Positions 17,701-62,643 of a DNA stretch of 64,000 nt are shown here, piece by piece. Position 1 is the stretch's first letter. Every line of letters begins with the position of its first letter. The position numbers and the translations under genes were made by a program. A model generated the notes under the pieces. That model did not search any database. It was given only the letters and a program-made list of their open reading frames with translations, and was not told where the DNA came from. This DNA is from Reclinomonas americana ATCC 50394 (taxonomy: Eukaryota), in contig PS015018.1 in NCBI GenBank assembly GCA_048213135.1, positions 1 through 64,000 of the forward strand, given 5' to 3'.

Positions 17701-18027
17701 CTCGGCAATGTCATCCAGTCGCTGCAACAGAAGAACGCCCATCACCCGTTCCGCGACTCGAAGCTCACGCTACTGCTGCAAGACTCACTGGGTACGTTCA
17801 CCGTGTGCACACCCTTCCCCGGGCGTGCTTGCTAATATGTTGTTGTCGCTGCAGGTGGTGACTCGAAGGTCAACATGATTGTCAACGTGTCACCTGCCGT
17901 GGAAAACGTGACGGAAACCATCAGCTCCCTCACGTTTGCCAGCCGCGCTCGTGCCGTCGAACTTGGCAAGGCCGAGAAGCAAGTGGTGTCCGGACGGGGT
18001 GGCGGAGGATCGTCGTCAAACTCGTGA
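11773..18027 (+). CDS. kinesin-14 (C-terminal motor) with N-terminal SH3 domain, coiled coils and poly-Pro tract
   Basis: SH3: VKAMYSYE...[23 protein letters not shown]...GLFPANY. Kinesin-14 neck [25 protein letters not shown]-loop GQTGSGKT, switch I NEHSSRSH, switch II DLAGSER, then [19 protein letters not shown]. Includes a 23-nt microexon at 17478-17500. All three gaps fall in introns with compatible phases. Confidence 0.85.
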
Positions 18028-22999: not shown

Positions 23000-24682
23000 C
23001 TAACTGCGTGTGGACGCTGACACCTCGCCCTGCTGTTGCTCCCTCTTCGTCATGTAGTTGTCGAGGCGAGTGCGCACCTCGTCGTACAGCTCCGGTTGTT
23101 GCTGCATGCGGCGCTCATACTCGGCAGCGTGCTTCTCCGACGCACACAGATCACGCATCTTGCTGAACGAGTGATGGCCGACCTGCGCAACTGCGTGGTG
23201 AGCTACGTGCAATCAAGAGTCATGAATGCGCTTTGCGCATGCACCTTACGAGCGGCCCAGTTGACGAGCCAGTCGGGAATCAGCTTGAGCTTGGGATCAA
23301 AATTGCTGTGCATTGGTGGCGACACACCGATTCACTTTCACGAGAACCTCTGACTTGGCAGACAGGAGCACGAACCTCAGCATGATCAAGCGACACGAGT
23401 CGCGAGTGAGTGGCGAGACGGTGAAACTGCGTGGCGTCAAATGTCAGGGCACACGGCCTCAACACCGCAACACAAGATCCGTGCACGCAACCCCGCGATT
23501 GGCATATCGATGCGCACAGTGCTCTTCTTGGGCGGTGGCAACGGCAGCGCACTGTCTGGCGAGCGTGGCGGTTTGAAGATGATCTTTTCGTACGACTCGA
23601 TCGTTTCGCCGACAACCACAAAAGCGCCGTGAGCCTCCAGCGCGTCGACGCCATAACCGTACACTGGAGATACGTGCATCATAAGAGAAAGAAAAGCTGA
23701 GTGAATAATCACCAGGGCGCAACACGTGCGACGCACCAACGCAATCGCGGTCGGAGATGATCGGCACACCAATCGCTGCATGCATAACGATGCGCGCGCG
23801 ATCGGGACGGGCCAACTCAACGCACTCGCGCATGTTTGGCACCCTACATGACGCGTGAGCATGAGGCAAACAGCGTACTCGAAACGGAAGCGAAAGCCTC
23901 GACAACAGCCACACGTACCAGTCCTTCCACAGATCCATCTCATTCAACACCGCAATCACCTTCAATGCACTGGCCGGAATGTCGCCCTCGATGCGCAGCG
24001 TCTGCAACGTCATGCCCGGCAGCGACTTCCAGCAGATGCGAATGCCTTTGGAGTTGTTCACCTCCTTCCACCCTGTGTTGCTGTGTGGTGAGCCACAGCA
24101 GAAGAAGGAGAAATACCAAGTGAAAAAACACGCCTTCCTCCTCGTACGTCAACGCGATAATCTGGTCAAAGCGCTCACGTTCCACACGAATGGTCCCAAA
24201 CTTGCTGTCCGCGCGTCGCAACTCCTCCAACATGGCGCGACTGTGACTTTCTGTCACCCGCGCATCAGTTGCGTGCTCTCGTGCTCTCTTACACACACGC
24301 TCTCTCTCACCCGCGGGTGTCTCCGGATGCTGTGCAACCCACTCCAGTCGCTGCGTGACTTTGCGCAGTGTGTCATCCGCCTTGGTAACAAACAAACACA
24401 ATCAATCAGTCGGCGGCGCTCATCGTGCACATGGAAAGGCAAGCAAAAAGACGCAACATGAACAAGCATTTCCTCATGAAACGGCACCATGATGGCATCG
24501 ACGACACGCTGCCACTCGTCGGCCTCCGCCGAGTGCACCCACGCTGGTGGCACACGAGCGCTCACATCCTCGAACAAGAGCTCCTCCTCCAGCCACGCGC
24601 ACAGTTCGGCCCACTCTGCCATGTGCGCTGTGCTTGTCACACTGTGCGACATGCTGCTGCTGCCGCCTGAGCCCGACGCCAT
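23000..24682 (-). CDS. START/SRPBCC-domain lipid-binding protein
   Basis: Spliced: GWKEVNNSKGIRICWK...LRIEGDI...VIAVLNEMDLWKDWVP...PIISDRDCV...GFTVSPL...NFDPKLKLIPDWLVNWAARK, the START signature. Has one GC-AG intron (24073-24133) and one GTTGCG donor (23491). Confidence 0.8.
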
Positions 24683-24794
24683 TCAAAGAGTCGCGATCGA
24701 GGCGGGACACTGCGTTGCGCCATGATTGGAAGTTTTTGTTTGTTTTTTGTGTGTGTTGTACATTACAAGAGCTCAGATGCATTCGCTATACTGC

Positions 24795-27700
24795 TCATCG
24801 TCGACGCAGCGAGGCGGTGGAACGAGGCGTTCGAGCCGAGGATCGCGGCTGTCGGAACGAGAAGTCAGTCATTTCACAATTTGCGTTTTCCCTGCTGGTT
24901 TTTTTGCATGAACGCAACTGACGATGAGTTGGAGCCGGGTGGCGGAATGGGCGAGCCTCCGCGACGAGGAATGGGTGGCGGTGGCGGTGGAACAGGCGAG
25001 CCGTTGCCGCTCACGTCGTCGCCTTCGCGGTCGTCGACGGAGCGCGCACTGGAGGGCATGAAGGGCTCCTGGAGCAGTGGACTCGGTGCCTGCGTAAAAG
25101 CAAGGTATAGTGTGAGCAAAATCATGAAGAGCGCGACCGATGAATGCATCTCCCACGCACCCGAGGTGACGGGGTGTTCCACCGACGAACACCAGGCGCT
25201 GCTGCTGCTGCTGTGGTCACTTCGGCAACGTCCTCCAGCGGCGGCATGTCGCCCGGCTCCGCGACGGCGTTCGCCACTGCCTCTTGAGGCGAGTGCGGAA
25301 CCTCGGGTGCCATGTCACTCGCCATCGACGCGGCAGTGAGGGCGGCGGCGGCTGCCTCACGCCGCACACGCAGAGGCGATTGCACCGCTCGCGCTCCCTG
25401 CGCCAGCGACTCGAAGAACTCACGCTTGTCGGCGAACGTCATACGACCAGGCGACACTTCGCTGTCGTCGTTGGCGCTCGAGCCGACTGCGGCCGCAGCG
25501 GCCGACGAAGCAGCACCGGCCACGGCACTGGACGTCACCGTACTGAGGTCCAGTTGGGTCGCGGAGGGCGACTTGAACGCCCCCCCACTCTTGACGTCTT
25601 GATCCTCAGACACCACTGGAGCCTCGACTTCCAGCAGTTTCACGTCACTCTCCGAAATCACCACCAACGGTGGTGGTGGTGGTGGTGTTGGAGGCGACGC
25701 AGGCGGCACTGACTGTGCTGGCGAGGCCACCGACGAGTCGGCGCCGTGCTGTGCATCCATGTCGCTGGCCACGTGTCGTGGTGAAGGCGGTGGAGAGAGG
25801 GAGCGTGGCGCGGGACGTCCGCGCTTGGAACGGCGTGTCGCCGCTCGCCGCGGTGCCACCAGCACTGGCGGCTCGGTGGAAACCGAGAGCACCGGCACAG
25901 CCACTGCAGGTTGTGGGTTGGGTTCAGGGACAGTGGTGGCGGCGGCGGCAGCAGCAGCAGCAGGAGCGGCGGCGCTGAGAGCTGCAGCATAGACTTGGGC
26001 GTGCGCCTGAGCGGGTGACATCGAGTGCGCCGTGGGACTCACGCGCTCCATCTGGCGAGCCAGCGGACGCAAAACTGTGTGGCACACGAAGCAGTGGTTG
26101 GAAGCACGCTCGAATTGTCGTTTTTGACTCTCCGCACACACTCACCAGCACTTCGGCGACCGGCGTTTCGATGCAGCCGCTCATACACATTCGCCGTGGA
26201 CTCCTCCGGCGCCCCTTGCTGGTGATGTGAGTGATTGTCCTCGGTGCTTTGCGACGTCAACAGGTCGATGTTGGTAATGTCTTCGTTCGCCGCATCCCCG
26301 GCAGTGAGCATGTACATGGCGTCCACAGGCACAGCTGGTGGCTGTGGGCTGTAGAACTCGACAGGCTGCACCCCCTCGCCCCGATCCTCCTGAACACACG
26401 CATGAGCAACAGCAAATCTATCAAGCGAGTGGCACGCACAAACACACACCATCGAGTCATTTCCGAGGCCACCGGCGCCACCGCCCATTGTTTCCGAGTG
26501 CGATTCGTCAGCCGACGTGGGCGACAACGGCATGGAGCCGTCATCCGCAGCGGCTGTACCCGACGGTTGTGGCGTTGACAAGGTGCGTTCCGCCAACTGC
26601 GACACAAACATGAGCACCCGATGCATCAATGAAGAAAAAGCAAGACAATTCTGACAGCGTACCAGACGAAGTTCGTGCATGGCCGTCTGCAAGAGTCAGT
26701 CACAAAAGCATGTGGTCAGCCAGCGAACAAACAAACAAACAGAAATTGTGAATGGCACACAACACCAACCAGTGACTCGGGAACTGGGGGCGGTGGCAGC
26801 AAGCGGGCCTCGCCCTGCTCGCGCTGTCGCTTTTGCGACACTCGGCGTCGGTACCGACCGACCGAGAGCCACCACACCAGCAACACCACCAGCACGATAA
26901 AGATGATGCCGGCGAACGGAATCACCAGGTACCACAACCACCAACGCGAGTCGGAGCGCACAACCACCGACGTGTCGTTGACTGAGGTCGACGTGCTTCG
27001 AATCACTGCATACGTGGCATCCGCGCACACGTACGCAGTCAGCAAGCTGCTTGTGCGATCGTACTGCTGCGTGGCCGTGGTCGGCGGGCAGCCAGTCTCC
27101 GACAACACGTAGGTTTGAGTGCTCGTATCGTAGCGATACAAGCGCGGGTCCGCCTCATCCGCGGTCGACGACACAGTGAGCGTGGAGACGGCTGAGGCTG
27201 ACCACGTTGTGGCGGTGCGCGTTGTAGAGGAGGCAGATGACGACTCGGAGCGCGAGGGATTCGAAGTGGTCGTGGAGTTTGACGACGACGACGAAGACGA
27301 AGAAGAGGTACTGCTCAGTGTAAAACCGGCGAGTACGGTGCCTGACCGTGGGGACGGTGGCGATTGCAGTCCGTTGAGAGAAACCGAGGTCGATCCAGAG
27401 GTGCTGTCGGTGACACCATGATAGTGAGCGCACAAGGAAACATCAGAGACCGACTTGCAACAACTCAGTGAGTGACAAACCCAAACGTAGTGGCCGGGAA
27501 CATGATGGATACGGACGAAGTGTTGCTGCTGGATGCTGTAGAGCCGCTGATCGACGGCAGTGGCACAGACGGCAGCGTCACCGATGAACCACCTGTGTAC
27601 ACATGATATTCAGCCACAAACACACATGTCTTCGCGATGTGCGTGACAAGCACACTCACCGAGGCCGTCGGTACGCGACGGATCCTCCACGTTGACAAGA

Positions 27701-30700
27701 GCGCTGGAGGATGAGGAGGATGTCGAATTCGATGACGAAGAGGACAAATAGGCGGCCAGTGTGATGCGCAGTGGAGCCAGAGGCACAGTCAGTGACGTGC
27801 TCTCAGTGCTGGTGAGTGTCGACGTCGGCGACAGTGCGCGCACTGTGCACGACACGGAGGCCAAGGTGGACGGGAACGGCTGCAGCAGGTCTCGTGTGGG
27901 CACGGCATACACCACTGCAGCGGAGCCAGTGCGCGCTTCGAAAACTCCACTCGACGCCACACTGTGAAGCGCACAGAGGCACAGACAGAGTTGGCGAAAC
28001 AAGCGCTGCCAGTGGAATGTCGACAGCGAACTCACCTTGGCGTGCACCGCAGCATGTACTCGGAAATTGCAACGTTGTTGCTGACGACCTGTTGCCACAC
28101 AAAGCGCACCGTGCCGACTAGGTCGAGGAGTGTGAGGCTTGTCGGAGTTGCCGGCGCCGCTGCAACAAGACGGTGTGAGCGCACGCCAGTCGATAACCCC
28201 CACATGAGGACGGAAATCGGTCACGCACCCAGTGGGCCGACAGTGGTGCTCACTTGCACCAAGTCGCTGCTGGCGCTCTCGCCGACTGAGTTGGCTGCAC
28301 GGACACGTGCTTCGTACGCCACGCCTGCAGATTTTTTACAACNNNNNNNNNNNNNNNNNNNNNNNNNNNNNNNNNNNNNNNNNNNNNNNNNNNNNNNNNN
28401 NNNNNNNNNNNNNNNNNNNNNNNNNNNNNNNNNNNNNNNNNNNNNNNNNNNNNNNNNNNNNNNNNNNNNNNNNNNNNNNNNNNNNNNNNNNNNNNNNNNN
28501 NNNNNNNNNNNNNNNNNNNNNNNNNNNNNNNNNNNNNNNNNNNNNNNNNNNNNNNNNNNNNNNNNNNNNNNNNNNNNNNNNNNNNNNNNNNNNNNNNNNN
28601 NNNNNNNNNNNNNNNNNNNNNNNNNNNNNNNNNNNNNNNNNNNNNNNNNNNNNNNNNNNNNNNNNNNNNNNNNNNNNNNNNNNNNNNNNNNNNNNNNNNN
28701 NNNNNNNNNNNNNNNNNNNNNNNNNNNNNNNNNNNNNNNNNNNNNNNNNNNNNNNNNNNNNNNNNNNNNNNNNNNNNNNNNNNNNNNNNNNNNNNNNNNN
28801 NNNNNNNNNNNNNNNNNNNNNNNNNNNNNNNNNNNNNNNNNNNNNNNNNNNNNNNNNNNNNNNNNNNNNNNNNNNNNNNNNNNNNNNNNNNNNNNNNNNN
28901 NNNNNNNNNNNNNNNNNNNNNNNNNNNNNNNNNNNNNNNNNNNNNNNNNNNNNNNNNNNNNNNNNNNNNNNNNNNNNNNNNNNNNNNNNNNNNNNNNNNN
29001 NNNNNNNNNNNNNNNNNNNNNNNNNNNNNNNNNNNNNNNNNNNNNNNNNNNNNNNNNNNNNNNNNNNNNNNNNNNNNNCGCGGTGGCACCCACCAAACGG
29101 TACTCGAGCACGTATTGCACTGTCTCGGCATCGATACCGCTGTTGGACGGAGCAACAAACGACCACACAATCGAGTTGTCGTTGCCAACACCACTCAGCG
29201 ATGTTGGCGTGGACGGAACTGCAAGCGGAGGAGGAAAATGAGCATCTCACAGAAATCTATGGAATGAGCAATTTCCACTGCTGGTGCTCGACAGTACCTT
29301 CGCTGACGGTGCGCACAACGCCTGGCACGGTGGCCGTGGACGAGGGGAGTGCCGTAAGGCCAACCAAGCAGGTCACTTGCACACGTGAGTATGGCGTGTT
29401 GGGCAGCAGGCCGATTACCGTGAACGACTGCGCACGGTTCGCGCCGTCGCGTACAAACGTTTGACTGATGGTCTGCTGACCATTGGTACCCAGGTTCTCA
29501 ACCATGGTCACACGGTACTGGTTTACGGCACTCGCCGTGTCGTCCTCCGGATGTTGCCACGAGAGCGTGACACTCGAGGAACGAACCGCAACCATGGTCA
29601 AATTGACCAGTGGCTGCGCCGGCGGCGGCAGCAGCTTGACCACACCNNNNNNNNNNNNNNNNNNNNNNNNNNNNNNNNNNNNNNNNNNNNNNNNNNNNNN
29701 NNNNNNNNNNNNNNNNNNNNNNNNNNNNNNNNNNNNNNNNNNNNNNNNNNNNNNNNNNNNNNNNNNNNNNNNNNNNNNNNNNNNNNNNNNNNNNNNNNNN
29801 NNNNNNNNNNNNNNNNNNNNNNNNNNNNNNNNNNNNNNNNNNNNNNNNNNNNNNNNNNNNNNNNNNNNNNNNNNNNNNNNNNNNNNNNNNNNNNNNNNNN
29901 NNNNNNNNNNNNNNNNNNNNNNNNNNNNNNNNNNNNNNNNNNNNNNNNNNNNNNNNNNNNNNNNNNNNNNNNNNNNNNNNNNNNNNNNNNNNNNNNNNNN
30001 NNNNNNNNNNCTACGGTAAGCGTGTAAGTTGGCAGCGTCGCAGGCGCCAGTCTGGCGCGGAGCACACTTGGAGCCATGAACAGCATGACCGGTTCAGTGG
30101 TGATGCCTGCGACAAGCAATTGTGTGAGCAACAGATTACGCAGCGCGACAAAGTAGGAGTCGACGAAACGTTGCAGCATGGTGAACCGCTGAGTCCACTG
30201 GTTGCCAGCCGCGTCGGTGACGGTGATCTCAAACGCGTACGACGGGTTCACCAAGTCGATCTGGGCGCGCAGCGTGACTCCGTCAATCACAAACGCATCG
30301 TTGTTGTTGACGACCATTTCGTCGACAGTGGTAAGCGTGTACACGACAGTGTCGTTGTTCGGCATGTCCTGATCCACCACATCGAGAGTGGCCAGTGGTG
30401 TGGTGGCGGTAGTGCCAGGCGGGAATGTGAGCTGGCTCGGCACAATGCCCGTCGGCGCGTGGTTGACGGTGAGCACAAACACTTGCTCGAGTGTCAGCGC
30501 CTGCGAGTCGGTGAAACGGACACGAATCAGCAGCGGAGTCCGCGAGTCGATCACAATGCCGGCGGCGGCAACGCGCAGCACAGAGTTGCTCTGGCCGACA
30601 AGCTCGAACAAAGCATTGTCGCGGTCGCCGACGCCTGCCACCAGAGTAAAGGTGCCGTTTTCGAACGAGGTCTTGTCGGTGAAGCTCAAGTTGCCGATCA

Positions 30701-33700
30701 CTCGATGCGCGGCTGCTGGCGACACTACCACCGCATTCGATAGTGCCATTGCTTGCGGTGCGATGGCATCTGCGCACAAAGAATTACAATTGGAACAATC
30801 ATGCCACGCTTCGTCGCACACTGGCGCGTTGTACCTTCGTTCAGAGTGAATGTCTGCAGGAATGTGTTGCCGTGGCCGTCGTCGGCCTGAATCTCCACAG
30901 TCTTGGTTCTGCCGGGCTGCAGCGCGCCAACTCGCAGCGCATTGTTGACAATGGTGAACTCGCCGCTGTTGGCCGTGTTGGTCAGCGTAAAGGTGAGAGT
31001 GTCATTCTCAGGGTCGGAGCCACGGAGGGCGGCCAGGGGCGTGTTGGGTGCAGCCTGCGCCGGATAAATGAGCGCGTCGGCACAAATGCTCGTCGGCCAC
31101 AAGTTGAAGGAGACTGCATGATTGCAAGAACACACACGTAGGGTGAGCACACAGAGCAACAACAACAAGAATTNNNNNNNNNNNNNNNNNNNNAAAGCGT
31201 GCCATCCGATGCACGCAAGCACACGTGGAGTACACGATCCTGCGGCTTGGTGATGGTCAGCTCGCCCACGAACAGTTGGTTGTTGGTCACAGTGAACAAG
31301 TTGTTGTTGGTGTCCACATTGCAGCTGGCCAACGAGTAGGTGATCGCAAAGCCGTTGGGGTCCTGCGCAGAGATCGTGCCGATCAACGTGCCAGGGGCGG
31401 CAGGAAGTGGCAGCGGCATCGTTTGCAGCGCCATGGTTGGCAGCGTTGGCGGCAGGTTGACTAGAGAGCACGCGAAGACATGAGCACCAAGTGTACCTAT
31501 CAACAAACTCGCAACCAACGCAACTTTCTGTGAGAGTCACTGGAGCGGTCGTTGAAACGGTGCCGTCGTTGACCACAAGAGTGAGCGACTTGGTGCCAGC
31601 CAGTGACAGGGTGACGCCAGTCTTCACAAAGAGCTGATTGAGGTTGCGTACTTCGAACTCCGCAGCTGCAGCGCCAGCGACCGAGTACGCCAGCGTGTTG
31701 CCATCCACGTCCATGCTCGAAATGGTGCCGACAAACGTGAGCGCCGGTGCGCTCGGGAGGTAGGTCAGTGGACCAGACAAGACCGGTGTACGCGGTGCGC
31801 TGTTGACTGGCACCACAAATGTTTGCACCTCCGTGAGGCCGCCGGCGTCTGTGACGCGAAGCCGCACAATAATCTGTCGTCCAGCCGCCTCGCCAGCAAT
31901 GCCGCCCATGACGACCACCAGCGACGAGCCGTCCACAGCAAAGAAGGCATCTCCGGACCCCGGCATGATGGAGTACGATTTCGTGTCGTTCGCATTGTCG
32001 TCGACTGAGGACATGTTACCGACGACAGTGCCAGGCGCGGCGGGCAGCGCCAACACCGGAGTCGCCAGCGTCAACTGCAGCGCCAGACCATACGGAGCCT
32101 CATTGGCTGCAACAAGAAGATGAAAAGCGTCAATACGTCTGCAGTAGGCGTAATGGTTAACATATCAACGGCAAAAAGCGAGACGCAACATTGGTTAATG
32201 TTAACATCCTGCGTGAATGACAGGCCGCCAGCGTCGGTGACCGTGATACGCACCGTCAGCGGGCCAGTGAGATTGGGGTCGGCCACAACGAGTCGATCGC
32301 CGGGTGCGCCGAGCACGAATCCAGCATTGTTTGCCGCTCCGGCAACCAGCGCATACGAGAACTTGTCTGTCAGCGAAGGGTCGGTGGCAGTGAGCACGCC
32401 GACCACAGTTCCCGCGGCCGATAGTGGTCGGTAGAACGATGGCGACAGCGCAATGCCGGTGGGCGCGGCGTTCACTGCACGGTGGCAAACACGTGGAGGT
32501 GAGTCACTGTAGTCACGTCAAAAGAGAGCAGAAAATGACTTGCGCGCTTCACCTGGAATGATGAAGCGCTGCTGCAACGTGGCTCCATTGGCGTCGGCGA
32601 CTTGAAGCCGCACTGACAGATTCGGCGCCAGCGGCGGCGCAAGACCGGCTGCACTAACGACAAGCGTGTTGCCGACGACTTGCACCAGACCATTGTCGGT
32701 GTCGCCGACGCCGGCAACCAGCGAGAACGACTGCGTCTCAGGCACGTTGACAGGCGAAGCCAGTGTGTTCGGATCGGTGGCCGCCAGTGTTCCGATCGGC
32801 AATCCAGCAGCCTTGGGGATGGTGGTAATGGATGACAGCAGCGTCAGTGACAGTGACGATGGCGGCATGTTGGCTGTTGTGGTGTTGCACAATGAAAAGA
32901 TGTGCATCGTGAGCAACTGTGATGTTCGGTGAATGAAAAAGGGGACTGCACCTTCGGTAATCGTCAGCGTCTGCACAAACACCGAGCCAGCGCGGTCCAC
33001 AACTTGCACAAAGACAATGCGCTCTCCTGTCATGGACGCCTGCGTGACGACCAAGCTCGTCACCGTACCCACCGTCTGCAGCGTAAACATCGCATTCTGG
33101 CCCATGCCATTCGGCAGCGTCAGAGTCCAAGACTCGTTGAGGTCGACGTCGGCCACCGTGAGGTAACCGACAACAAAGCCAACGTTGACACGCGGTGGGT
33201 ACAGGTTGGACGAAATGGAGACACCAGTGGGAGACGTGTTGACTGCGCATGTGTGTGTGTGTGAGTCGCAGCAGTCACAGATGCTCTCGGTGATTTTTCT
33301 CGTGCTCACCTGGAATGCTGAAGCCGTCTTCCACAAACGCACCGGCTTGGTCAGTGGCACGGATGCGCACACGCAGCGGGGAGTACCACGCGCCGGTGAT
33401 GCCGATCATTCCGTTGCCGACTCGAAGCTCGTTGCCGACAATCACGAAGAGGCCGTTGTTGTCGCTGCTGGCGCCCGAGCGCAGACTGAATGTGATGGAT
33501 TCCGAGGCGTTGGCATCGGCAGCACTCAGAATGCCCACAACAACATTGGGCACGGCAGGAAGCGCAAGTGGGGCAGAGGTGCCGCGATTCAGGGCGACGC
33601 TTGACGGGGCCACATTGGCTGCAGACGAGTGGTGTGAGTGCGAGTGGCGGCGACACGGTGGTGCATCATGTCAACGCATACCTTGATTCAACGTCAGCAC

Positions 33701-36700
33701 CGTGCGTGTGACGTTGCCGGAACCGTCGGTGGCCGACAGCTCCAGAGTCTTGGAGGTAGCTGGCGCCAGTTGCAGAACATTTCCAGAAACAATGAGTACG
33801 TTGCCAGCCGCCACAGTAAACTCCACGGCACTGGGGCCTCCGCTCACTGCCAGCGTGATGGGGACACCGTCATCGTCAACGTCGGAAGTTGTGAGGATAC
33901 CAATGACAGTGCCAGGCGTGGCATTCGGCGGATATGTGCCGGCAGAGAGCGCGATGGGTCTCGGAGGGCTCGACACTGGTGGTCGTCGGTGAGAATTCTG
34001 TCGTCACACACAAACAAAACAAGAACTGTCCACTTACCAGGAAGAGTAAACGACTGTTGCGATGCGAGAGCTCCATCGCTGACGGTGATGGTGACGGTGG
34101 CGTAGGTGTGGAGCGTCTCGGCAGCAAGGCCCATGCCACCCACACGAACTTCATTGCCATTAACAATGGACAAGAACGGCGCGCCGGTGCCGGCCGTGAT
34201 GGTGTAGGTCAACGTGGAGGCGGCGTTGGCGTCGGTGGCAGACAGTGTGCCAACCACTATCACACAGTGCACGCGTGAGTGACGACGACTCGTTGAGCAG
34301 AAGAAAGACGGGGGACGAAACAATGGTTGGCAGCCGCAGGCAGAAGCAGCACGGGCGCGGAGAGTGCGAGCGACGGGTCAGACGGCGCGACATTTGCTGC
34401 AAGAGAGCACACCAAATGAGGCATACGCACGACACTGACACTCGCGAACGCACGCACCTTCCACCACTGTGAGTGAGAACTGAGTCAGTGTGGCACCTCG
34501 CGAGTCGACCACGTTGACTTGTACAGTTTGAGATCCAGCAATGGAGACATTGTTAATCTCGAGGCGTGCCGGAGCAGTGATGCGGAAATTGTTGTTGCTC
34601 GCAACACCGGCAGGCAGCGTAAAAGTCCACGCATCCACAATGTCGGCGTCCACTGCCGTCAGCGTGCCAACCAAAGTACCCACGGCTGCTCCTGGAACAT
34701 ACTTGTTTGACGAGAGCGTCACAGCCGTGGGAAGTGCGTTGACTGATCGGAAACACACAGATGCACGAGGTCAGTTGATGAAAATGACAGTGGCGGTCAA
34801 ANNNNNNNNNNNNNNNNNNNNNNNNNNNNNNNNNNNNNNNNNNNNNNNNNNNNNNNNNNNNNNNNNNNNNNNNNNNNNNNNNNNNNNNNNNNNNNNNNNN
34901 NNNNNNNNNNNNNNNNNNNNNNNNNNNNNNNNNNNNNNNNNNNNNNNNNNNNNNNNNNNNNNNNNNNNNNNNNNNNNNNNNNNNNNNNNNNNNNNNNNNN
35001 NNNNNNNNNNNNNNNNNNNNNNNNNNNNNNNNNNNNNNNNNNNNNNNNNNNNNNNNNNNNNNNNNNNNNNNNNNNNNNNNNNNNNNNNNNNNNNNNNNNN
35101 NNNNNNNNNNNNNNNNNNNNNNNNNNNNNNNNNNNNNNNNNNNNNNNNNNNNNNNNNNNNNNNNNNNNNNNNNNNNNNNNNNNNNNNNNNNNNNNNNNNN
35201 NNNNNNNNNNNNNNNNNNNNNNNNNNNNNNNNNNNNNNNNNNNNNNNNNNNNNNNNNNNNNNNNNNNNNNNNNNNNNNGGGAGCACGAAGCAAGCAAGAC
35301 ATGAGCACAGACACCGACAAAGGCACAGCAAATGCCAAGAATCAACGCACTTGCAATAGTCAACACCGCCTGCAGTGTCAAGTTGGCCGAGTCGCGCACT
35401 TGCACCCGCACACTCAGTGGCGTAGCAAGACCAGTCGGCACACCACCGGCGCCGACTTGCAGCTGATTGCCGCTGATCACAAACAGGCTGTTGTGCGTCG
35501 CACCCACGCCGTTCACCAGCGTGAATGTCGCCGAGTCGCCCGCGTTGGCGTCGGTGGCGGCGAGCACTCCAACGGTTACACCGGGCGCCAGCCCACCAGT
35601 GGGAATCAGAATTGGTGTGGCTTGCGGCGTCAGAGTCACCAGAGTGGGTGCCACAGGAACTGTGTGCGTGGTCACACAAGAGTGAGCAATCACGAGTGGA
35701 TCGGTATGCAGATGTAGATACAGCGAGTGAAGCTACAAACCCTCCGACAACGAGAACTGCTGCTGCAGATTGTTGTTGGCCGAATCGACTACATTGACCA
35801 CCACTTGCACCGTGCCAGAGATCGGTGCGCTCAGCACCAAGTTGCGACCGGCAATCGAGAAACTGCCGTTTGCCTGCGGAGAAGTTGGTCAAAAAATGGA
35901 AGCACGACAGCCTCATCTTATTTCTTGCAGACAGCGGCTCACCATTTGACCCGCCGGCAGACTGAATGTGGCCGTGTCCAACGGATCGGGATCGGTCACC
36001 GTCAGGTACCCGATCACGGTTCCCGCGACCGATGCCGGCACATACGTAGCTGTCGACAACGTCAATGCCGTGGGTGCACCGTTGACTGCAGAGAGATACA
36101 AGAGGAATCAGTAACGCCGCACGTGCATTGCATGCGATAAATACAAGAGTGTTCACGCATGCGTACCAGGAATCACAAACGCCTCCTCCACCGACAGTCC
36201 GGACGAGTCCGTGGCGCGGATGCGCACACGCAGCGGATTCGACTGCGGCGCTGTGATCGTGACAGTGGCCGAGGTGCGCAGCTGCGCACCAACAATGGCG
36301 AACAGACCGTTGTTGGTGCTGCCGTTGCCGGACACCAGCGCGTAGCTGGCAATGGTGCCACCAGAGCCGGCCGAATTCGGATCAATGGCCAATAGGTTGG
36401 CCACAGGAGTGCCCGTCGACGCCGGCAGTGAGAGCACCGGCGACACCAGTGTCGCAGTCAACAGTGTCGGCGGCAGAGCAACTGCGAAAAAAAGCGAATC
36501 AGCGACTGCTTGTTTCGTCACCAGCTACCAAACAGGTGCGCAACTCTCCGTCAACGTGAACGTGTTGTCGATAAAGAGGGTCGGTCGAGTGGCATCCGTC
36601 GCACGCACAGTGATGGTGACGGAACCGAACGGCGTCGCCGCCATACCAATCGTCAGTGAGTTACCCATCACCGCAAAGGCGTTGCTGACCGACTGCGCCA

Positions 36701-39700
36701 CGATCGAGAACACGTNNNNNNNNNNNNNNNNNNNNNNNNNNNNNNNNNNNNNNNNNNNNNNNNNNNNNNNNNNNNNNNNNNNNNNNNNNNNNNNNNNNNN
36801 NNNNNNNNNNNNNNNNNNNNNNNNNNNNNNNNNNNNNNNNNNNNNNNNNNNNNNNNNNNNNNNNNNNNNNNNNNNNNNNNNNNNNNNNNNNNNNNNNNNN
36901 NNNNNNNNNNNNNNNNNNNNNNNNNNNNNNNNNNNNNNNNNNNNNNNNNNNNNNNNNNNNNNNNNNNNNNNNNNNNNNNNNNNNNNNNNNNNNNNNNNNN
37001 NNNNNNNNNNNNNNNNNNNNNNNNNNNNNNNNNNNNNNNNNNNNNNNNNNNNNNNNNNNNNNNNNNNNNNNNNNNNNNNNNNNNNNNNNNNNNNNNNNNN
37101 NNNNNNNNNNNNNNNNNNNNNNNNNNNNNNNNNNNNNNNNNNNNNNNNNNNNNNNNNNNNNNNNNNNNNNNNNNNNNNNNNNNNNNNNNNNNNNNNNNNN
37201 NNNNNNNNNNNNNNNNNNNNNNNNNNNNNNNNNNNNNNNNNNNNNNNNNNNNNNNNNNNNNNNNNNNNNNNNNNNNNNNNNNNNNNNNNNNNNNNNNNNN
37301 NNNNNNNNNNNNNNNNNNNNNNNNNNNNNNNNNNNNNNNNNNNNNNNNNNNNNNNNNNNNNNNNNNNNNNNNNNNNNNNNNNNNNNNNNNNNNNNNNNNN
37401 NNNNNNNNNNNNNNNNNNNNNNNNNNNNNNNNNNNNNNNNNNNNNNNNNNNNNNNNNNNNNNNNNNNNNNNNNNNNNNNNNNNNNNNNNNNNNNNNGTCC
37501 CTGTGCCGTGTCGTCCACTGCCGACAGAGTGGCCACAACACTGCCGGACCCAGCTGTCGGCGAGTACTGTGTCGTCGACAACGCCACTTGTGACGGCGCA
37601 TTGTCGACTGCGGNNNNNNNNNNNNNNNNNNNNNNNNNNNNNNNNNNNNNNNNNNNNNNNNNNNNNNNNNNNNNNNNNNNNNNNNNNNNNNNNNNNNNNN
37701 NNNNNNNNNNNNNNNNNNNNNNNNNNNNNNNNNNNNNNNNNNNNNNNNNNNNNNNNNNNNNNNNNNNNNNNNNNNNNNNNNNNNNNNNNNNNNNNNNNNN
37801 NNNNNNNNNNNNNNNNNNNNNNNNNNNNNNNNNNNNNNNNNNNNNNNNNNNNNNNNNNNNNNNNNNNNNNNNNNNNNNNNNNNNNNNNNNNNNNNNNNNN
37901 NNNNNNNNNNNNNNNNNNNNNNNNNNNNNNNNNNNNNNNNNNNNNNNNNNNNNNNNNNNNNNNNNNNNNNNNNNNNNNNNNNNNNNNNNNNNNNNNNNNN
38001 NNNNNNNNNNNNNNNNNNNNNNNNNNNNNNNNNNNNNNNNNNNNNNNNNNNNNNNNNNNNNNNNNNNNNNNNNNAACGCATGGAACATAGCGTGAGCATG
38101 TGCGTTGAGTCAACAACGCGCACATACGCCACACATACTCAACTGGCGAGAGTGAGCACGGTCTCGAAGCTCAAGTTGGTGGAATCACGAACTTGCACGC
38201 GAACAGTAAGCGGAGTCGCCAGTCCAGTCGGCAGACCGCCGGCAGAGACCTGCAACTGATTGGCTGCGATCGAGAATCGGCTGTTATGCGTGGCGCCGAC
38301 ACCGTTGACCAGACTGAATGTAAATGTCTCGGCTGAATTGGGATCGGCAGCCGTGAGCTGGCCAGCTACGGTGCCTGGTGCGAGTCCGCCAGTGGGAATG
38401 AGCAATGGTGCAGCTTGTGGCGTCAACGTAATGCCCGTTGGCGGCACGGCGGCTGTGTAATTTTGTTGACAGGTGGTGAGCAAGGAGGAGGAAAACGAAT
38501 GTTGCGTACACAACAACAACAACACACCTTCGACAATGATAAACGTCTGTTGCAGAGTGTTTCCGGCAAAGTCGACCACATTGACCAAGATCTGATTGTT
38601 GCCAGTGACGGCGGCCGCATTCAAGAGCAGGTTGCGTCCAGCGATGGAGAAACTCGCATTGCTCTGTCATCCCCAAGCCAAACGCAGTGAGTGCACACAG
38701 CAAAGCACACCAAGAAGACCGAGGGGTCTCAGAACAAACCAGTTGTCCGTTCGGCAGTGAAATCGTCGCGGTGTCGAGAATGTCGGGGTCAGCAATCGTA
38801 AAATAGCCGACAACGGTACCGACAGCCGACCCGGGAACATATGTGTTGGAAGACAATGTGATGCCCGTTGGGGAGGCATTGACTGCAGGACGACAGTCAG
38901 TGGACTGGTGCGTGAGTGAGAGATGTGCACACAAGTTGATGTCCTCACCGAGAATGGTGAACGACTGCTCCAAGAACAGATTGGTCTGATCCCGCACTCG
39001 CACTCGAACACTCTTGGGCGACGTCTGCGCCGAGGCGGATATGCCGGCAGCGGCGACCACCAGAGAATTTGGCGCCGAAATGCTAAACAAGCCATTGTCA
39101 CTGTCGCCAACACCGGTCACCAACGTGTAAGTGAACGAATTGCCTGCGGCATTGGGGTCAGTTGCCGACAGTGTGCCAACTGGCGTTGCCGCCACCGCCG
39201 GCAAGTGCAACACCGCGTTCGTCAGAGTCAGCGTCAGCAACGTCGGTGCCACATCAACTGCACAACATATGAGCACGTGAGGGTCGCAGACATGCACAAC
39301 CAAACAGCCAGATACTCAACTCTCGGTCAGCACCACGGTCTGATCCACGAAGAGCGAGGGTCTGCCGCTGTCGCGTGCGCGAATGGTAATGGTAACCGTT
39401 CCGTGCGGTGGCACTGTCCCGATGACCAAGGTGGCGCCCGCAATGGCAAAGGCATTCGCCGACGAAGAGCCAACAACGCTCACGGTGTACGAGGCTGGTG
39501 TTGTGTCGTCCTGTACAGTGTATGATGCGACAACGGCTCCGGCAGCGGCAGTCGGGGAGTAACTGGTCGTGGATACCACGACAGCCGACGGCGCGTTGTC
39601 GACTGTGCGAGAAAAGTTCAGTACGTGTGCACTGTCGAATGATAAGGAAAGTACAGTCACAGGTAGTTGTGCGCAACTTGGGANNNNNNNNNNNNNNNNN

Positions 39701-42700
39701 NNNNNNNNNNNNNNNNNNNNNNNNNNNNNNNNNNNNNNNNNNNNNNNNNNNNNNNNNNNNNNNNNNNNNNNNNNNNNNNNNNNNNNNNNNNNNNNNNNNN
39801 NNNNNNNNNNNNNNNNNNNNNNNNTGGAGAACACCGAGGTCGTGGACAGGCCCCCGGCGTCAGTGACCGAGAGACGGACGGTGAGCGGTGACGCCAATCC
39901 GGCAGGGAGTCCAGTGGCTCCAACTTGCAGTTGGTTGCCAGCCACCGCAAAGTAGCTGTTGTGAGTGTCGGCGGCGCCGGCGACCAGCGAGAACGTGAAT
40001 GTGTCAGCCGTGTTGGCGTCAGTCGCGCCCAAATTCGCCACAGCAGTGCCGACTGCCAATCCAATGGACGGCACAAGGAGTGGATTCGTAAGCTGGGCAA
40101 ACGTGATGGCTGACGGCGCACGGTTGCCTGCACGAAGGAAAAAAAGAGAAGTATGTGTTAAATTAGTGCAGGATTGTTTGAAAGAAGAGACAGTGCGCGC
40201 TTCGAATTCGCAACTCTCGCTGATGACGATGGGTGTCGTGACGCTGGCTCCAGTGGCGTCAGTGGTTGTCACTGCAGCCGTGTTGGTTCCAGTGACGGCG
40301 CCGACGAGAGCTAGTTGATTTACATTCACAATCTGGAATTTGTTGTTGCTCTAAAAAAGCACAGGGAGNNNNNNNNNNNNNNNNNNNNNNNNNNNNNNNN
40401 NNNNNNNNNNNNNNNNNNNNNNNNNNNNNNNNNNNNNNNNNNNNNNNNNNNNNNNNNNNNNNNNNNNNNNNNNNNNNNNNNNNNNNNNNNNNNNNNNNNN
40501 NNNNNNNNNNNNNNNNNNNNNNNNNNNNNNNNNNNNNNNNNNNNNNNNNNNNNNNNNNNNNNNNNNNNNNNNNNNNNNNNNNNNNNNNNNNNNNNNNNNN
40601 NNNNNNNNNNNNNNNNNNNNNNNNNNNNNNNNNNNNNNNNNNNNNNNNNNNNNNNNNNNNNNNNNNNNNNNNNNNNNNNNNNNNNNNNNNNNNNNNNNNN
40701 NNNNNNNNNNNNNNNNNNNNNNNNNNNNNNNNNNNNNNNNNNNNNNNNNNNNNNNNNNNNNNNNNNNNNNNNNNNNNNNNNNNNNNNNNNNNNNNNNNNN
40801 NNNNNNNNNNNNNNNNNNNNNNNNNNNNNNNNNNNNNNNNNNNNNNNNNNNNNNNNNNNNNNNNNNNNNNNNNNNNNNNNNNNNNNNNNNNNNNNNNNNN
40901 NNNNNNNNNNNNNNNNNNNNNNNNNNNNNNNNNNNNNNNNNNNNNNNNNNNNNNNNNNNNNNNNNNNNNNNNNNNNNNNNNNTCAAGCGAGCATCATGGA
41001 AGGGATTATTCGCTCACACTCTCTTCTTTTGCCTGCTTGCAGTGAACAACGCACCGGTGGATCTGCGAGTTTCCGCCTCCACATTCCCGTACGGCTGCAC
41101 ACCCGGAACGCAGCTGGCGGTACTTACGCCGGTGGATGACACAAATCCACCGTACGCCTTCTCGATTGTGAACCAGTTCCCCGCGGCTTCGGTGGCCATT
41201 GCAGGTTTGTCATCTACCCGCCTCTGCATTGCCCCTCTGCCAGCACTCTATTGACTCGAGTCCATGTTCATGCAGGCAATGCCATTCAGTCGGCCGCGAT
41301 GTTCCTTACTGGCACCGTCACACTTGTCGTGCGAGTGACGGACACCAGCAACCCCACTCTCTTCTTCGACAAGAACGTCGTGCTCACTGAGGGTACGCCC
41401 CCTCTCTGTCTGTGCCAATGGCAGCGATTAACTGATTGACTGACAATCACTGATGCACAGGCCCCGTGACACCGTCTACCCTGACTCTGACTTTGGGTTC
41501 GGCGACGTTGGCGCTGCCGGCTGCAGGTGCGTCACGGCTGCACGGTGCATCGGTGTGGCTCCGAGATCATCTGCTGACCATTGTAATCATGCAGCTGCCA
41601 CTGTTGTTGGTGCACTGTCGGCGAGTCCTGCCAACACCGGCGACAGCTTCACGTACACACTTGTGGCTGGACCGGGTTCTACAGACAATGCTCGGTTCGA
41701 GATCAGCATGCAGTCACTGGCGGTTAACTCGATGGCCGCACTGTCGCCACCGCAGGCGCGCGTACTGCGAGTGCGGATCCGCGCCACAGCTAACGCGTCT
41801 GGGCTGTACACCGAAGAGAGCTTCGCCATTCAAGGTACTCCAGCATTGTGACGCCAGCGTTTGTGTCGCGCATGAGTGGCTGTGACTGACAAGTCTTCGT
41901 CACTCGCAGTAAACGCGGCTCCGACGGCCGTAACAATCTCCACCAACACCTACCTGCCTGGCTCGCCGGCGGGAACAGTTGTGGGTGTGCTCTCTGCGAC
42001 CGACGCCGACACCATGGACTCGTGGACGTTCTCGTTGCCCGCTGGCCAGTTTGTTCGTACACCGCGTCGTGTCATGCTGATGTCTGTTGGCCTCTTCAGC
42101 TCACGNNNNNNNNNNNNNNNNNNNNNNNNNNNNNNNNNNNNNNNNNNNNNNNNNNNNNNNNNNNNNNNNNNNNNNNNNNNNNNNNNNNNNNNNNNNNNNN
42201 NNNNNNNNNNNNNNNNNNNNNNNNNNNNNNNNNNNNNNNNNNNNNNNNNNNNNNNNNNNNNNNNNNNNNNNNNNNNNNNNNNNNNNNNNNNNNNNNNNNN
42301 NNNNNNNNNNNNNNNNNNNNNNNNNNNNNNNNNNNNNNNNNNNNNNNNNNNNNNNNNNNNNNNNNNNNNNNNNNNNNNNNNNNNNNNNNNNNNNNNNNNN
42401 NNNNNNNNNNNNNNNNNNNNNNNNNNNNNNNNNNNNNNNNNNNNNNNNNNNNNNNNNNNNNNNNNNNNNNNNNNNNNNNNNNNNNNNNNNNNNNNNNNNN
42501 NNNNNNNNNNNNNNNNNNNNNNNNNNNNNNNNNNNNNNNNNNNNNNNNNNNNNNNNNNNNNNNNNNNNNNNNNNNNNNNNNNNNNNNNNNNNNNNNNNNN
42601 NNNNNNNNNNNNNNNNNNNNNNNNNNNNNNNNNNNNNNNNNNNNNNNNNNNNNNNNNNNNNNNNNNNNNNNNNNNNNNNNNNNNNNNNNNNNNNNNNNNN

Positions 42701-45098
42701 NNNNNNNNNNNNNNNNNNNNNNNNNNNNNNNNNNNNNNNNNNNNNNNNNNNNNNNNNNNNNNNNNNNNNNNNNNNNNNNNNNNNNNNNNNNNNNNNNNNN
42801 NNNNNNNNNNNNNNNNNNNNNNNNNNNNNNNNNNNNNNNNNNNNNNNNNNNNNNNNNNNNNNNNNNNNNNNNNNNNNNNNNNNNNNNNNNNNNNNNNNNN
42901 NNNNNNNNNNNNNNNNNNNNNNNNNNNNNNNNNNNNNNNNNNNNNNNNNNNNNNNATGTGTGCATGCGAGTGAGAAATTCACAAACGACATTGGCTGCGG
43001 ACACAATACAATACACGCAACCATACAGAGTAAAGTTGGCCTCGGTGTAGAGGTCGGACGACACAGACGCGCGTACACGAATGTACATGACAAATGGCAG
43101 CGGAGCGTCGAGGTTGGGCATGGAAGCCACCGCAATGACGCCAGTGGCTGGGTCGGCAATCTTGAAGTAGCTGTTGTGGGTATCGAGAGTGCCTGCTTGC
43201 AAAGTGTACGAGACAGCGCGGCCGAGATTCAAGCGTGTGCTCGACAGCGTGCCCACAGAAGCATCGGTGGCGGCCGGCAGGAGAATCACCGGACTCGGTG
43301 GAGTCAGTTTGACCTCCAGCGGGGGATACAGCACTGTACCGCAAGCAGTGAGTAACAGACTCCACAGAATTGGTGTCGAAGGCGAGCAAAGTGACGCACC
43401 CTCATCCACAGTGAACTGCGTCGACAGAGTGAGCTGCGGACGACCAGCGTCGACCACCTGGATTGTAAGTGTGACGGGCCCCACTGGCGGCGCCGAGCCA
43501 ATCACCAGCTGCGAGGCGCCATTGATGCTGAACGCGTTTGGCAGACTCTGCGCCGTGATGCTGAACGTGTAGGCGGCCGTGGTGTCGTCGGTGACGCGAA
43601 TGGAGGCGACCACTGTGTTGGCCACACTCTGCGGCGGATACTGCAGCGTGCTCAGGTCGATGCGGGTCGGGGCATTGTCGACTGCGTGAGTGCACGCACG
43701 CAAATCGTGAGTTGTGAGACGCAAACGGTCGGCAAGTCGACGGTCACGCAACTGGCAAACACAAATGTGCGATCGACAAACTGTGCAAAATAAAAAAATG
43801 CGGAGAGGAGAGTGTGAGGGGGCTGGGAAGTTTGAGTGTGACAGGGAGTTGAGCGGAAGGGAGGGATTACCAGTCCAGCAGAATCCGTCACACGCGCACG
43901 CACGCTGAACTCGGAAAAGTAGGTGCCAACAGGAATGTCGGCGGCACCGACCTGGAGCTGGTTGCCGACAATGGCAAACAAGGCGGTGTGCGCAGCGTCC
44001 GTCATGCCCATGGTCACCAGCGAGAAAGTGAGGGTGTCAGTGGGGTTTGGATCGGTGGCGGCAAACGTGCCCACGGCGGTGTTTGCCAGAAGACCGCCTG
44101 TGCGAATGAGCAGCGGCGTCGCAGCAGGCGAAAAAGTGAACGTGTCCGGCGCCATCTGCTTCTCCGACAGCACAATCGACGAGGTGGTTGAGGCACCGGC
44201 CGAATCGGTCACAGTGATCTGCAACGACCTGACGCCCTGCAGACTCATGGCGTTCACACGCAGCTCATTCCCGTTGGCCACCGTGAACGAGTCATTGTCG
44301 GCAACCATCGGCGCCAGCGAAAACGAAAAGCGATCGTTGGGATCCGTGTCGACAGCACGCAGACTGCCGACCAAATCACCGACCGCGGAATTCGGCACGT
44401 ACGTGGCGGTCGACAAGACCACCCCGGTTGGTGCCTGATTCAGCACCACCTCGTACCGCTCCTCCGTGAACTCGGCCAGCGTATTGGTCACACGGACACG
44501 AAAGCGCAATGGAGACGGCGTGCCCGCCACCAAGTCCACAGCCAGCTAGTAAAAATGCACACGCATGAGATTGGCACGACAAAGAAGAGGAAGAGGACGC
44601 CATGGATGCATACCGTGACCGTGGCCACACCGAAAGCATCGGTCGCGGCGGTGATCGTCAGCTTGGCATTGTCGGTGCTGCCGAGGCCGGCAACCAGAGT
44701 CAATGTCAACGCAGTGGGTGGATCCACTGGATCCGTGGGTGCCAGCGATGCCACGATCACTGGCTGCTCGACAATCATCAGAATCGGAGAAATGGCAAGA
44801 CGACGATCACAACACAACGCAACTGTGGTCATAATGTCCGTCGGCAGTGAGATCACGCCGGCGGTGAAGGCAGATGCGTTAGGCGCTACACGAACACACG
44901 CAGTGAGCATCGAAATCCCCTATTCCTATTGCGTGACGATCAGACGCAACGAGCCGCCGCGACGCTCACGATCAGTGTGGTGAACAGCAGCAGGAGCAAG
45001 CTTATTGCTGCTGTTGTTACTGTTGTTGTTGTGATCATTGATCTCCTCCTCGCTGGAAACGACATGCGTCGTCGCAGTGCGTTTGATGACATGCTCAT
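24795..45098 (-). CDS. giant single-pass adhesion receptor: signal peptide, ~30 cadherin-like repeats, ~3 FN3-like domains, Ser/Thr-rich stalk, TM helix, Pro-rich cytoplasmic tail; contig 40983-42105 is inverted in the assembly
   Basis: Repeats of the form VNxAPTxxTLS...GTVVGxLxATDxD/N...TFxYxLxxGxxDNxxFxIxGNxLxV...VRVRVTDxxG. FN3-like VTLSW...Y...GLLPNTPY and YEARVRAANSVGES. TM WWLWYLVIPFAGIIFIVLVVLLVWWL followed by RYRRR (about 26850-26945). Phase-1 introns lie at most repeat borders. The exact stop is tentative. Confidence 0.8.
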
Positions 45099-55473: not shown

Positions 55474-55533
55474 ATCATCCTGTTCTCTGCCTTCTCAATC
55501 TCCTTCTCCTTCTCCTTGCTGCCGACAACGAAA

Positions 55534-56211
55534 CTTGCGACGAATGGCACGAGTGCGCTTCACACGGAGATCCAACGGCAGCTGGCTCTTGCCGGCAAAC
55601 GCCTTGCGTGTGTTGCTGCGGCGCTTGGCATTCAACACCGTCAACACGCGAGCAATGTTCTTGCGCACAGACGAGCTGCGATACACAAAACACACAAAGT
55701 CAACAACACTGCTCCATCGCCCGTCCTCCTCCTCCTGCTGCTGCTGCTGGCACGCAACATCTTGCCGAGCTTGGAGGCACCACCGCTGGTCACTTGCGCG
55801 ACGCGCAGTTGTGCGAGCTCCTGCTTGAGCTCGGAAAGCTGGCGCTGCAGCTCCTCAGGTGACTTCTCGCGGAGCGAGTACGCAGAGATCTTGGCTGTGT
55901 GCGTGCGTGTGCGTGTGTGAGTGACATGACATGTGCGCGCGCGAGTCATGGCCAACAACAACAACAATCGCAGCAGAAGCAGAAGCACACAAAGGACGAG
56001 TCCTCTCTTTGCTCTCTCACTGTGTGCACGCGATGCGCGGGACCACACCACACTCGTACGTGAGCGTGCGTGCGTGTGGGCGCACATGCATGCACATCAG
56101 ACGCACTCTCTCTCTCTCTCTCTCAAGCCTGCCCTGCCCCAATCCGTCTCTGTTTTTTTCGTTCACACGCAGCACGATGCTCCCTGTCCCTGTGTACCCT
56201 ACGCAACTCAT
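55534..56211 (-). CDS. RPL35: 60S ribosomal protein L35 (uL29); final exon not visible
   Basis: ATG-A|intron 55895-56207|[47 protein letters not shown]|intron 55676-55758|[19 protein letters not shown]...[16 protein letters not shown]. The expected C-terminal ~25-30 aa was not found. Confidence 0.92.

Positions 56212-62343: not shown

Positions 62344-62415
<72 letters not shown>

Positions 62416-62551: not shown

Positions 62552-62643
<92 letters not shown>

Follow-up and report, generated by a model that had tools for sequence, protein, structure and literature searches.

Does a jakobid possess a giant cadherin-repeat receptor and, if so, from where did its repeats come and what might they do at the cell surface? 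The question is raised by a stretch of 64,000 nucleotides from Reclinomonas americana ATCC 50394 (GenBank assembly GCA_048213135.1, contig PS015018.1, positions 1 to 64,000), referred to here as the window (G000:C10:1-64000, whose coordinates are used throughout), of which an allelic copy with 95-98% identity exists (G000:C615). A first-pass annotation of this DNA had proposed a cadherin-FN3 receptor with bacterial-style repeats, possibly acquired horizontally, in a protist-like genome. Our analysis points to a minus-strand gene, running from an ATG at 45098 to a stop at 24795, whose predicted product is a type I protein with a signal peptide, at least 30 cadherin-fold repeats, the start of an IPT-like domain, three FN3 domains, a membrane-proximal domain, a transmembrane (TM) helix, and a cytoplasmic tail.

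Gene model and architecture of the receptor

The model was built by six-frame reading together with an exon predictor, which over-split exons, and was then curated by hand. The curated version (49 exons, 4,134 sequenced residues) has no internal stop in any of its 7 gap-bounded blocks, and one additional 63-nt in-frame intron at 30169-30107, whose donor and acceptor are typical and which shows an indel between the alleles, brings it to 50 exons and about 4,113 residues. The 39 introns contained within contigs are all GT-AG and 60-90 nt long (27 in phase 1, 10 in phase 0, and 2 in phase 2). The 45 modelled donors start with GTT in 18 cases (mostly GTTGCG or GTTGAG), with GTG in 17, and with GTA in 10.

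Exon 1 (44951..45098; minus strand, as for all exons of the gene except those of one flipped contig) carries the start codon and the signal peptide, with hydrophobic residues at 31-49 (hydropathy 2.48; cleavage site placed by eye). Repeat 1 follows directly, with no separate head domain, and exons 2-7 (43022..44885) encode repeats 1-5, of types B-like, C, D, A, and B; these letters denote four repeat types that recur with an ABCD period through repeats 2-18. The types are recovered in a tree of the repeats (support 0.97 for A, 0.98 for D, 0.90 for C, and 0.77 for B), and mean identity among the gene's repeats is 30%. A scaffold gap at 42106..42955 probably conceals more repeats, one C type and one D type by periodicity, and a branch-point-like end of the exon-7 intron is already visible at its edge. 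Repeats 6 and 7 and the first half of repeat 8 lie on a reverse-placed small contig (40983..42105) in five plus-strand exons (41043-41204, 41276-41392, 41461-41526, 41595-41834, and 41910-42052), and the second half of repeat 8 is found with repeat 9 at 39825..40350. Ten exons at 35351..39602 encode repeats 10-17, that is, two full ABCD cassettes, and the allelic copy leaves practically no length for the gaps at 36716-37496 and 37614-38074. Ten further exons (31236..34742) hold repeats 18-27, mostly one repeat per exon with phase-1 boundaries, repeat 27 being interrupted by a 20-N gap, and two exons (30170..31113) hold repeats 28-30. Because the gaps conceal sequence, the 30 repeats found are a minimum, in agreement with the earlier count of about 30.

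The C-terminal part opens at 30011..30106 with the start of a probable IPT/TIG-like domain, which enters the gap at 29647-30010. This assignment draws on two paralogous receptors, in which IPT-like repeats stand immediately N-terminal of the same FN3 domain as the first one in the window; the 31-aa piece itself gave no Pfam match. FN3 domain 1 (29298..29646) scores 39.7 bits with Pfam fn3 (cut-off 25). FN3 domain 2 (28229..29218) consists of two halves, at 29218-29079 and, for the last strands, at 28324-28229, with the gap 28343-29078 between them; in a colinear paralog on G000:C69, the two halves are adjacent exons with a phase-1 intron at the matching place. FN3 domain 3 (27830..28159, two exons, end approximate) aligns with the same paralog by tblastn (E 0.003), and its pieces gave no Pfam match. 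The FN3-like domains seen in the first pass are thus represented by one exon over the Pfam cut-off, and three domains are suggested by colinearity with the C69 paralog. They are followed by a membrane-proximal domain (26990..27830; conserved in G000:C69, C74, and C14237) that has a conserved Cys pair and carries Ser/Thr-rich insertions, by a single TM helix and then basic residues (approximately 26860..26940), and by a disordered cytoplasmic tail of 546 aa, encoded by seven exons (24795..26860), which is rich in Ala, Pro, and Ser and has several polyproline runs. The hydropathy of the TM helix is 3.09, and apart from the signal peptide every other segment scanned stays at or below 1.69, bearing out the single TM helix and long tail described before. 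The protein has 30 N-glycosylation sequons.

No match to the catenin-binding Cadherin_C domain was found in the 4/7 tail exons scanned, which hold most of the tail. A short hydrophobic-charged motif at about 25410-25450 (minus strand) presumably resembles motifs in the tails of afadin and Scribble, and near 24960 there is a Pro motif of the class II SH3 type.

A genuine inversion at 40983-42105 was considered and ruled out by splice continuity: the last phase-0 donor of the flipped contig joins the phase-0 acceptor at 40350, at the place where repeats 12 and 16, which are also C-type repeats, are split. The segment is instead a scaffolding artefact, because a different contig of the same gene is inverted in the allelic copy and an HSP90 exon (G000:C20:45959-46297) points the opposite way to the remainder of its gene, which is the same fault. 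A bacterial contaminant was likewise ruled out by the introns, the allelic copy, and the eukaryotic neighbours.

It is worth asking whether all of these blocks belong to one gene. Two facts weigh against this: the model contains four unbridged gaps (42106-42955, 34802-35278, 31174-31193, and 29647-30010), and the gene is known here from genomic sequence alone. Instead, scaffolding alone might have brought together at least two genes, such as one for a secreted repeat protein and another for an FN3-TM receptor, and it would suit such an arrangement that the four gaps are unsequenced in both alleles, that small contigs are mis-oriented and hence could be misplaced as well, and that unplaced contigs carry close paralogous fragments. 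However, the sequenced part contains no stop, no second signal peptide, and no intergenic-like stretch; open frames enter the gaps at 30011 and 29079; the ABCD order carries on over the upstream gaps; the paralogs show IPT-FN3 continuity at the questioned junction; and the allelic scaffolds, whose block order is identical, concur in order and spacing. We consider several genes improbable, and a single gene spanning 45098-24795, with continuity across the four gaps, very probable. The separate genes against which the first-pass annotation had cautioned do not appear in the sequenced part.

Eleven small contigs compared as possible gap fillers proved to be paralog pieces with 39-52% identity, with no gap-edge overlap among the matches listed. 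Alternating A- and D-type repeats, 39-52% identical to those of the window, are present on G000:C6884, C14591, C14170, C13296, C12964, C12321, C11701, C11702, C12121, and C15628, which are probably fragments of a close paralog that came apart at long runs of CA/GT.

The gene is intact, and purifying selection acts on it. Between the alleles, compared over 45/50 exons, synonymous versus non-synonymous differences number 89 to 24 for the repeats (pN/pS 0.10), 18 to 3 for the stretch from FN3 to TM (pN/pS 0.065), and 24 to 10 for the tail (pN/pS 0.155), and all allelic exon indels are multiples of three, bar one at the 20-N gap.

Fold, calcium ligands, and origin of the repeats

All 30 repeats score 19-76 bits against a profile made from 268 database repeats only, compared with at most 4.3 bits for 30 shuffled copies. 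One of them, repeat 24 (32191-32472), was modelled with AlphaFold from a 21-row alignment (pLDDT 96.5), and this model retrieved only cadherins among the Foldseek matches listed and cadherins in 50/50 of the matches listed by VIA (Z 9.1-11.4), with PCDH15 and CDH23 tied first. The repeats are predicted from these comparisons to adopt the cadherin beta-sandwich fold. The Pfam Cadherin model (PF00028) reaches 18.6 bits on the best exon against a gathering threshold of 28.8, scores for single exons that the spliced protein might exceed by summed score; one exon passes Pfam Big_9, and a PF00028 search of the genome gave nothing above the cut-off. Of the two Pfam checks proposed in the first pass, fn3 thus succeeds, whereas Cadherin stays below threshold on single exons.

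A profile of the window's repeats matches 30,624 database representatives, with up to 89 bits per domain for bacterial repeats and at most about 20 bits for solved animal cadherins among the alignments listed. Nineteen of the top 150 relatives were looked up: four have bacterial names, one is from Pigoraptor vietnamica, and the rest are without taxon; the remaining top-150 relatives were classed by eye from their protein ends, as far as these were listed. In a second protein search, the named matches were all bacterial, many of them planctomycete, among 120 listed of 442; the lack of named eukaryotes among these 120 is weak evidence, as only 8,000 candidates were considered. A further 36 genome loci were bacterial as well, and no intron-bearing eukaryotic relative was found among 24 metagenome and 3 viral loci, every one of which is a long frame free of introns. 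The three viral contigs (23, 86, and 231 kb; L152-L154) carry intronless arrays of cadherin-type repeats and might be a vector for the module. In an Atlas search, the top matches were cadherin-domain clusters at 0.96-0.97. Judged by sequence, the nearest repeats appear to be those of the prokaryotic adhesin type. The description of the repeats as bacterial-style therefore stands with respect to their nearest database relatives, but the style is not exclusive to bacteria, as 22 repeats of the same type are present in a Pigoraptor protein (P0051).

The N-x-A-P start, the T-D-x-D/N strand end, and the absence of LDRE/DYE, all noted in the first pass, are seen in the repeats. For the calcium ligands we use the motif names XEX, DYE/DRE, DXNDN, DXD, and XDX, following the motif description in PMC5120219, and counted one repeat per database protein, with three for six DYE-poor proteins. 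The XEX Glu is found in 0/30 window repeats, the DYE Asp and the DYE Glu in 2/30 each, and an acidic residue following the linker Asn in 1/30. What persists is the first DxD Asp (28/30) and the XDX Asp (27/30), with the second DxD Asp present in 12/30. The paralog repeats are similar (XEX 0/29, DYE 0/29), while XEX and DYE are kept in 243/268 and 217/268 database repeats and in 8/8 and 7/8 Pigoraptor repeats, respectively. Because most bacterial relatives retain the DYE and the XEX glutamate, the loss of both appears to be a derived feature of Reclinomonas; the first-pass annotation had taken the missing LDRE/DYE for a bacterial trait, and the counts reverse this claim. It counts against a derived loss that in 6/263 proteins none of the full repeats carries a DYE-type motif; both ligands are thus missing from a few prokaryotic proteins as well, and the loss could therefore predate transfer. 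Going by the canonical geometry, at most the third calcium site could survive in the linkers. A loop of bacterial type (Asp/His-Asn-x-x-Phe) occurs in 8/30 window repeats, 176/268 database repeats, and 0/8 Pigoraptor repeats, which may be a small point in favor of a bacterial link.

The origin of the repeats was addressed with two trees of 97 alignment columns. In a FastTree phylogeny of 335 repeats (30 window, 29 paralog, 8 Pigoraptor, and 268 database), a single branch (support 0.73) separates off all 59 Reclinomonas repeats, and the Pigoraptor repeats are scattered among bacterial ones. With IQ-TREE, we analyzed 66 rows (15/30 window, 10/29 paralog, 5/8 Pigoraptor, and 36/268 database repeats, the A and C types being under-sampled), and the approximately unbiased (AU) test did not reject monophyly of the Reclinomonas repeats (p-AU 0.62). 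No supported case of nesting of the Reclinomonas repeats in one bacterial clade was found in these trees, which have no animal outgroup. With 97 columns and no animal, choanoflagellate, apusomonad, or oomycete rows, they do not show a direction. We lean toward the view that the repeat entered the lineage once, from a prokaryote or a phage, and independently of animal cadherins. Several observations speak against this view. A clade of Reclinomonas and Pigoraptor is not rejected (p-AU 0.30), and Pigoraptor carries the same repeat type; one DYE-less database repeat (P0112) groups with Reclinomonas in the likelihood tree; and the Reclinomonas branch is weak (0.73) and may reflect the shared loss of acidic residues. 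We consider inheritance from the eukaryote root unlikely, and other routes of origin as well. The single-repeat phylogeny against bacterial and Pigoraptor rows, suggested in the first pass, is compatible with both a bacterial and a joint-eukaryote history, and the proposal of a horizontally acquired repeat that later gained introns is no more than plausible.

Repeat expansion, a shared receptor base, and candidate functions

The repeat has expanded in this genome. With one repeat as query we obtained 1,852 candidates, and 150/150 of those scored match (E <=1.7e-7) on 88 contigs, alleles included. Among the paralog loci that were read, phase-1 splice sites lie within 12 bases of each end in 63/90 full repeats.

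The C-terminal modules also recur. The locus G000:C69:131636-151600 (plus strand; L083, L084), with an allele on C74, is predicted to encode another giant type I receptor, in which a signal peptide is followed by a subtilisin-like region, one cadherin-like repeat, and about 19 IPT-like repeats, and then by the same three FN3 domains, the membrane-proximal domain, and a TM helix. The subtilisin-like region, putatively assigned by a motif match, gave no Pfam match in two exons, and downstream P-loop exons with weak NACHT/STAND-type Pfam matches may belong either to this gene or to a separate one. On G000:C1067 and C1139 (L090, L091), IPT-like repeats enter an FN3 domain that is 41% identical to FN3 domain 1 of the window. 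A base composed of IPT, three FN3 domains, the membrane-proximal domain, and a TM helix appears to be common to several receptors. It is a tentative and rather unlikely extension of this that jakobids made a calcium-poor, exon-shuffled kit of cadherin, IPT, and FN3 modules, protease heads, and NTPase tails, in parallel to the phase-1 module shuffling of animals.

The membrane-proximal segment corresponds to the Ser/Thr stalk of the first-pass annotation, and its composition fits that description (229 aa, 45% S+T). However, relatives on C69, C74, and C14237 are without Ser runs, and because a paralog has the same domain without them, the segment is probably a folded domain with Ser-rich insertions. 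The nearest named Atlas cluster is ZU5 at 0.83, Pfam and PDB sequence searches of the domain were blank, and a model of a 56-aa paralog piece (pLDDT 56.8) was too poor for a structure search; a ZU5/GPS-like fold is a lead only. In GAIN/GPS and ZU5 domains, a His-x-Ser/Thr before the last strand is the autoproteolytic cleavage motif, and no His is found at the expected place in 3/3 aligned copies.

As for function, we slightly favor the view that this type I protein, more than 4,100 residues in length, serves at the cell surface as a long and flexible tether or as an adhesion receptor. With XEX and DYE gone and only the first DxD and the XDX aspartates left, each linker would bind at most one calcium, and because of this the chain would be more flexible and less calcium-dependent than an animal cadherin. 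A cadherin repeat measures 4.5 nm, from which the chain would be about 135 nm long or more. With no head domain, the distal repeats would do the binding, the likeliest partner being the cell's own extracellular material (lorica or attachment matrix), possibly made of paralogous repeat proteins, or the substrate, and the polyproline tail may link the tether to cortical adaptors. The ectodomain presumably grew via duplicated phase-1 exon modules, including the four-repeat ABCD cassette, on the shared IPT-FN3-TM base with its membrane-proximal domain. According to bioRxiv 10.64898/2026.10.08.757618, R. americana lives as a sessile filter feeder with a lorica and also has a swarmer stage, and because it feeds lorica-attached and disperses as a swarmer, attachment, lorica, and prey capture are all candidate roles. 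It weighs against the tether that adhesion is read from fold and architecture only.

Two other roles deserve consideration. The protein could be a structural coat or lorica precursor, a spacer or fiber that is displayed or shed into the matrix without a specific ligand or signaling. The host is indeed loricate (bioRxiv 10.64898/2026.10.08.757618), the size of the repeat expansion would fit a bulk structural family, and the protein combines the lack of a head domain with many sequons and Ser/Thr-rich runs. The ZU5-like lead also fits shedding, in that the ZU5 fold family includes self-cleaving domains, but the cleavage motif is missing in the aligned copies, as described above; moreover, a shed fiber needs no 546-aa tail under purifying selection, and the diverged repeats of this gene are unlike the near-identical arrays of paralogs. 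Such a coat role we regard as unlikely. Alternatively, the repeats might bind bacterial surfaces in the feeding groove, with the tail triggering phagocytosis. The host is a bacterivorous filter feeder (bioRxiv 10.64898/2026.10.08.757618), the same role of prey capture has been proposed for choanoflagellate and Pigoraptor cadherins (PMC4265756, PMC7147346), and diverged repeat types could supply varied binding surfaces above a Pro-rich tail. Yet a scan of 29 exons revealed no lectin, no LysM, and no other known domain for binding microbes, the placement in the feeding groove is hypothetical, and the role is itself presented as a hypothesis in PMC4265756 and PMC7147346; we consider prey capture distinctly doubtful. 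In its mode of action, the protein would resemble a long non-classical cadherin or a bacterial repeat adhesin.

Host, neighboring genes, and comparison with known systems

The first pass had envisaged a protist receptor outside Holozoa. The host was identified from a 338-residue EF-1alpha exon on C7876, which is 100% identical to that of Reclinomonas americana, the next named jakobid entries being Histiona (87%), Jakoba (84%), and Seculamonas (82%). It is without the EF-1alpha insertion (by eye) that is diagnostic of opisthokonts, and the intron style at this locus is that of the window. The host is thereby indicated to be the jakobid R. americana (Discoba), not a holozoan, with the link made from contig to contig; it weighs against this that the marker is a single gene on another contig. 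Other markers did not place the host: an 18S family search picked up just a bacterial 16S and an 18S primer pattern gave 0 matches, the cox1 hits comprised two bacterial genes and one plant-like fragment, HSP90 reached 80% with its best match, and thymidylate synthase turned up on the bacterial contig only, which left no DHFR-TS fusion to assess. The assembly also includes large bacterial contigs and a cox1 fragment (G000:C1, C2, and C14726), i.e., co-cultured or contaminating DNA, of which the bacterial 16S is presumably Bacteroidota and the cox1 fragment presumably plant-like mitochondrial.

The receptor gene is spliced and flanked by eukaryotic genes. Reading the translations by eye, we putatively take these neighbors to be a C-terminal-motor kinesin (14294-18024, plus strand), a START-like lipid-binding protein (23000-24700, minus), RPL35 (55498-56096, minus), MOB1 (56632-57299, minus), and a glycosyltransferase-like gene (62117-63363, plus). 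Three related genes, two of them tandem near-duplicates, lie at 5979-9095 (minus) and 45800-47100 (plus), and segments of them presumably resemble FkbM-methyltransferase.

Among known systems, the closest repeats are those of prokaryotic cadherin-domain surface proteins (PF00028/PF17803; e.g., MEZ4885108.1 and XFA71677.1) from Planctomycetota, Bacteroidota, Cyanobacteriota, and others, which share the repeat pattern in tandem arrays of 10-40 and have a best identity of 33-50% per repeat to the window. These proteins are intronless, have T9SS-, RTX-, or SLH-type ends (by eye), and mostly keep XEX and DYE, whereas the Reclinomonas protein has 50 exons with GT-AG introns at module ends, FN3 domains, a TM helix, and a tail. 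P. vietnamica P0051 (EukProt EP01136) is likewise eukaryotic, with a signal peptide and repeats of the same type, but it differs in its holozoan host, its retained XEX and DYE, and an N-terminal Cys-rich head (by eye), and in both trees its repeats scatter among bacterial ones and not with those of Reclinomonas.

By contrast, the animal proteins CDH23, PCDH15, CELSR1, Fat, and Dachsous share with the window protein the cadherin fold, a long extracellular cadherin array, a membrane-adjacent domain, a TM helix, and a tail, but identity in structural alignments is 12-27% and most of their linkers bind three calcium ions. The base with three FN3 domains and the Pro-rich tail set the window protein further apart, and no catenin-binding domain was found in its tail exons scanned. 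A likeness to PCDH15 is seen in its calcium-free linker, which bends according to the linker description in PMC5120219. With the calcium motifs missing and no catenin domain detected, we would not file the protein as a true or classical cadherin. Outside Holozoa, cadherin-repeat proteins are also described from oomycetes (Pythium, 'nonagonal'), other SAR, and Thecamonas in PMC2926784, PMC8164589, and PMC4265756; the Pythium cadherins, a small family of four genes, keep LDRE and DxND according to PMC2926784, and it is by this description that we set them apart.

Eukaryotic cadherin domains are placed in Filozoa, SAR, Thecamonas, and one doubtful green alga in a 2021 review, with no Discoba named in the sections consulted (PMC8164589). 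Our literature search found no paper on jakobid or Discoba cadherins, although supplements of protist genome papers may already list such proteins, and no jakobid cadherin is described in the sections consulted of PMC11603286, PMC5182410, and PMC2362128. New here are the jakobid host, the calcium-motif comparison, the arrangement of repeats in cassettes, and a single-pass architecture whose base is shared with other receptors. A cadherin-repeat receptor in a jakobid would either shift such receptors toward the eukaryote root or represent an independent build from a bacterial adhesin module, and either outcome bears on the open question of cadherin origin. The calcium-poor repeats offer a natural test of a cadherin chain without canonical linkers and are candidate components of the lorica and attachment material in a protist that can be cultured.

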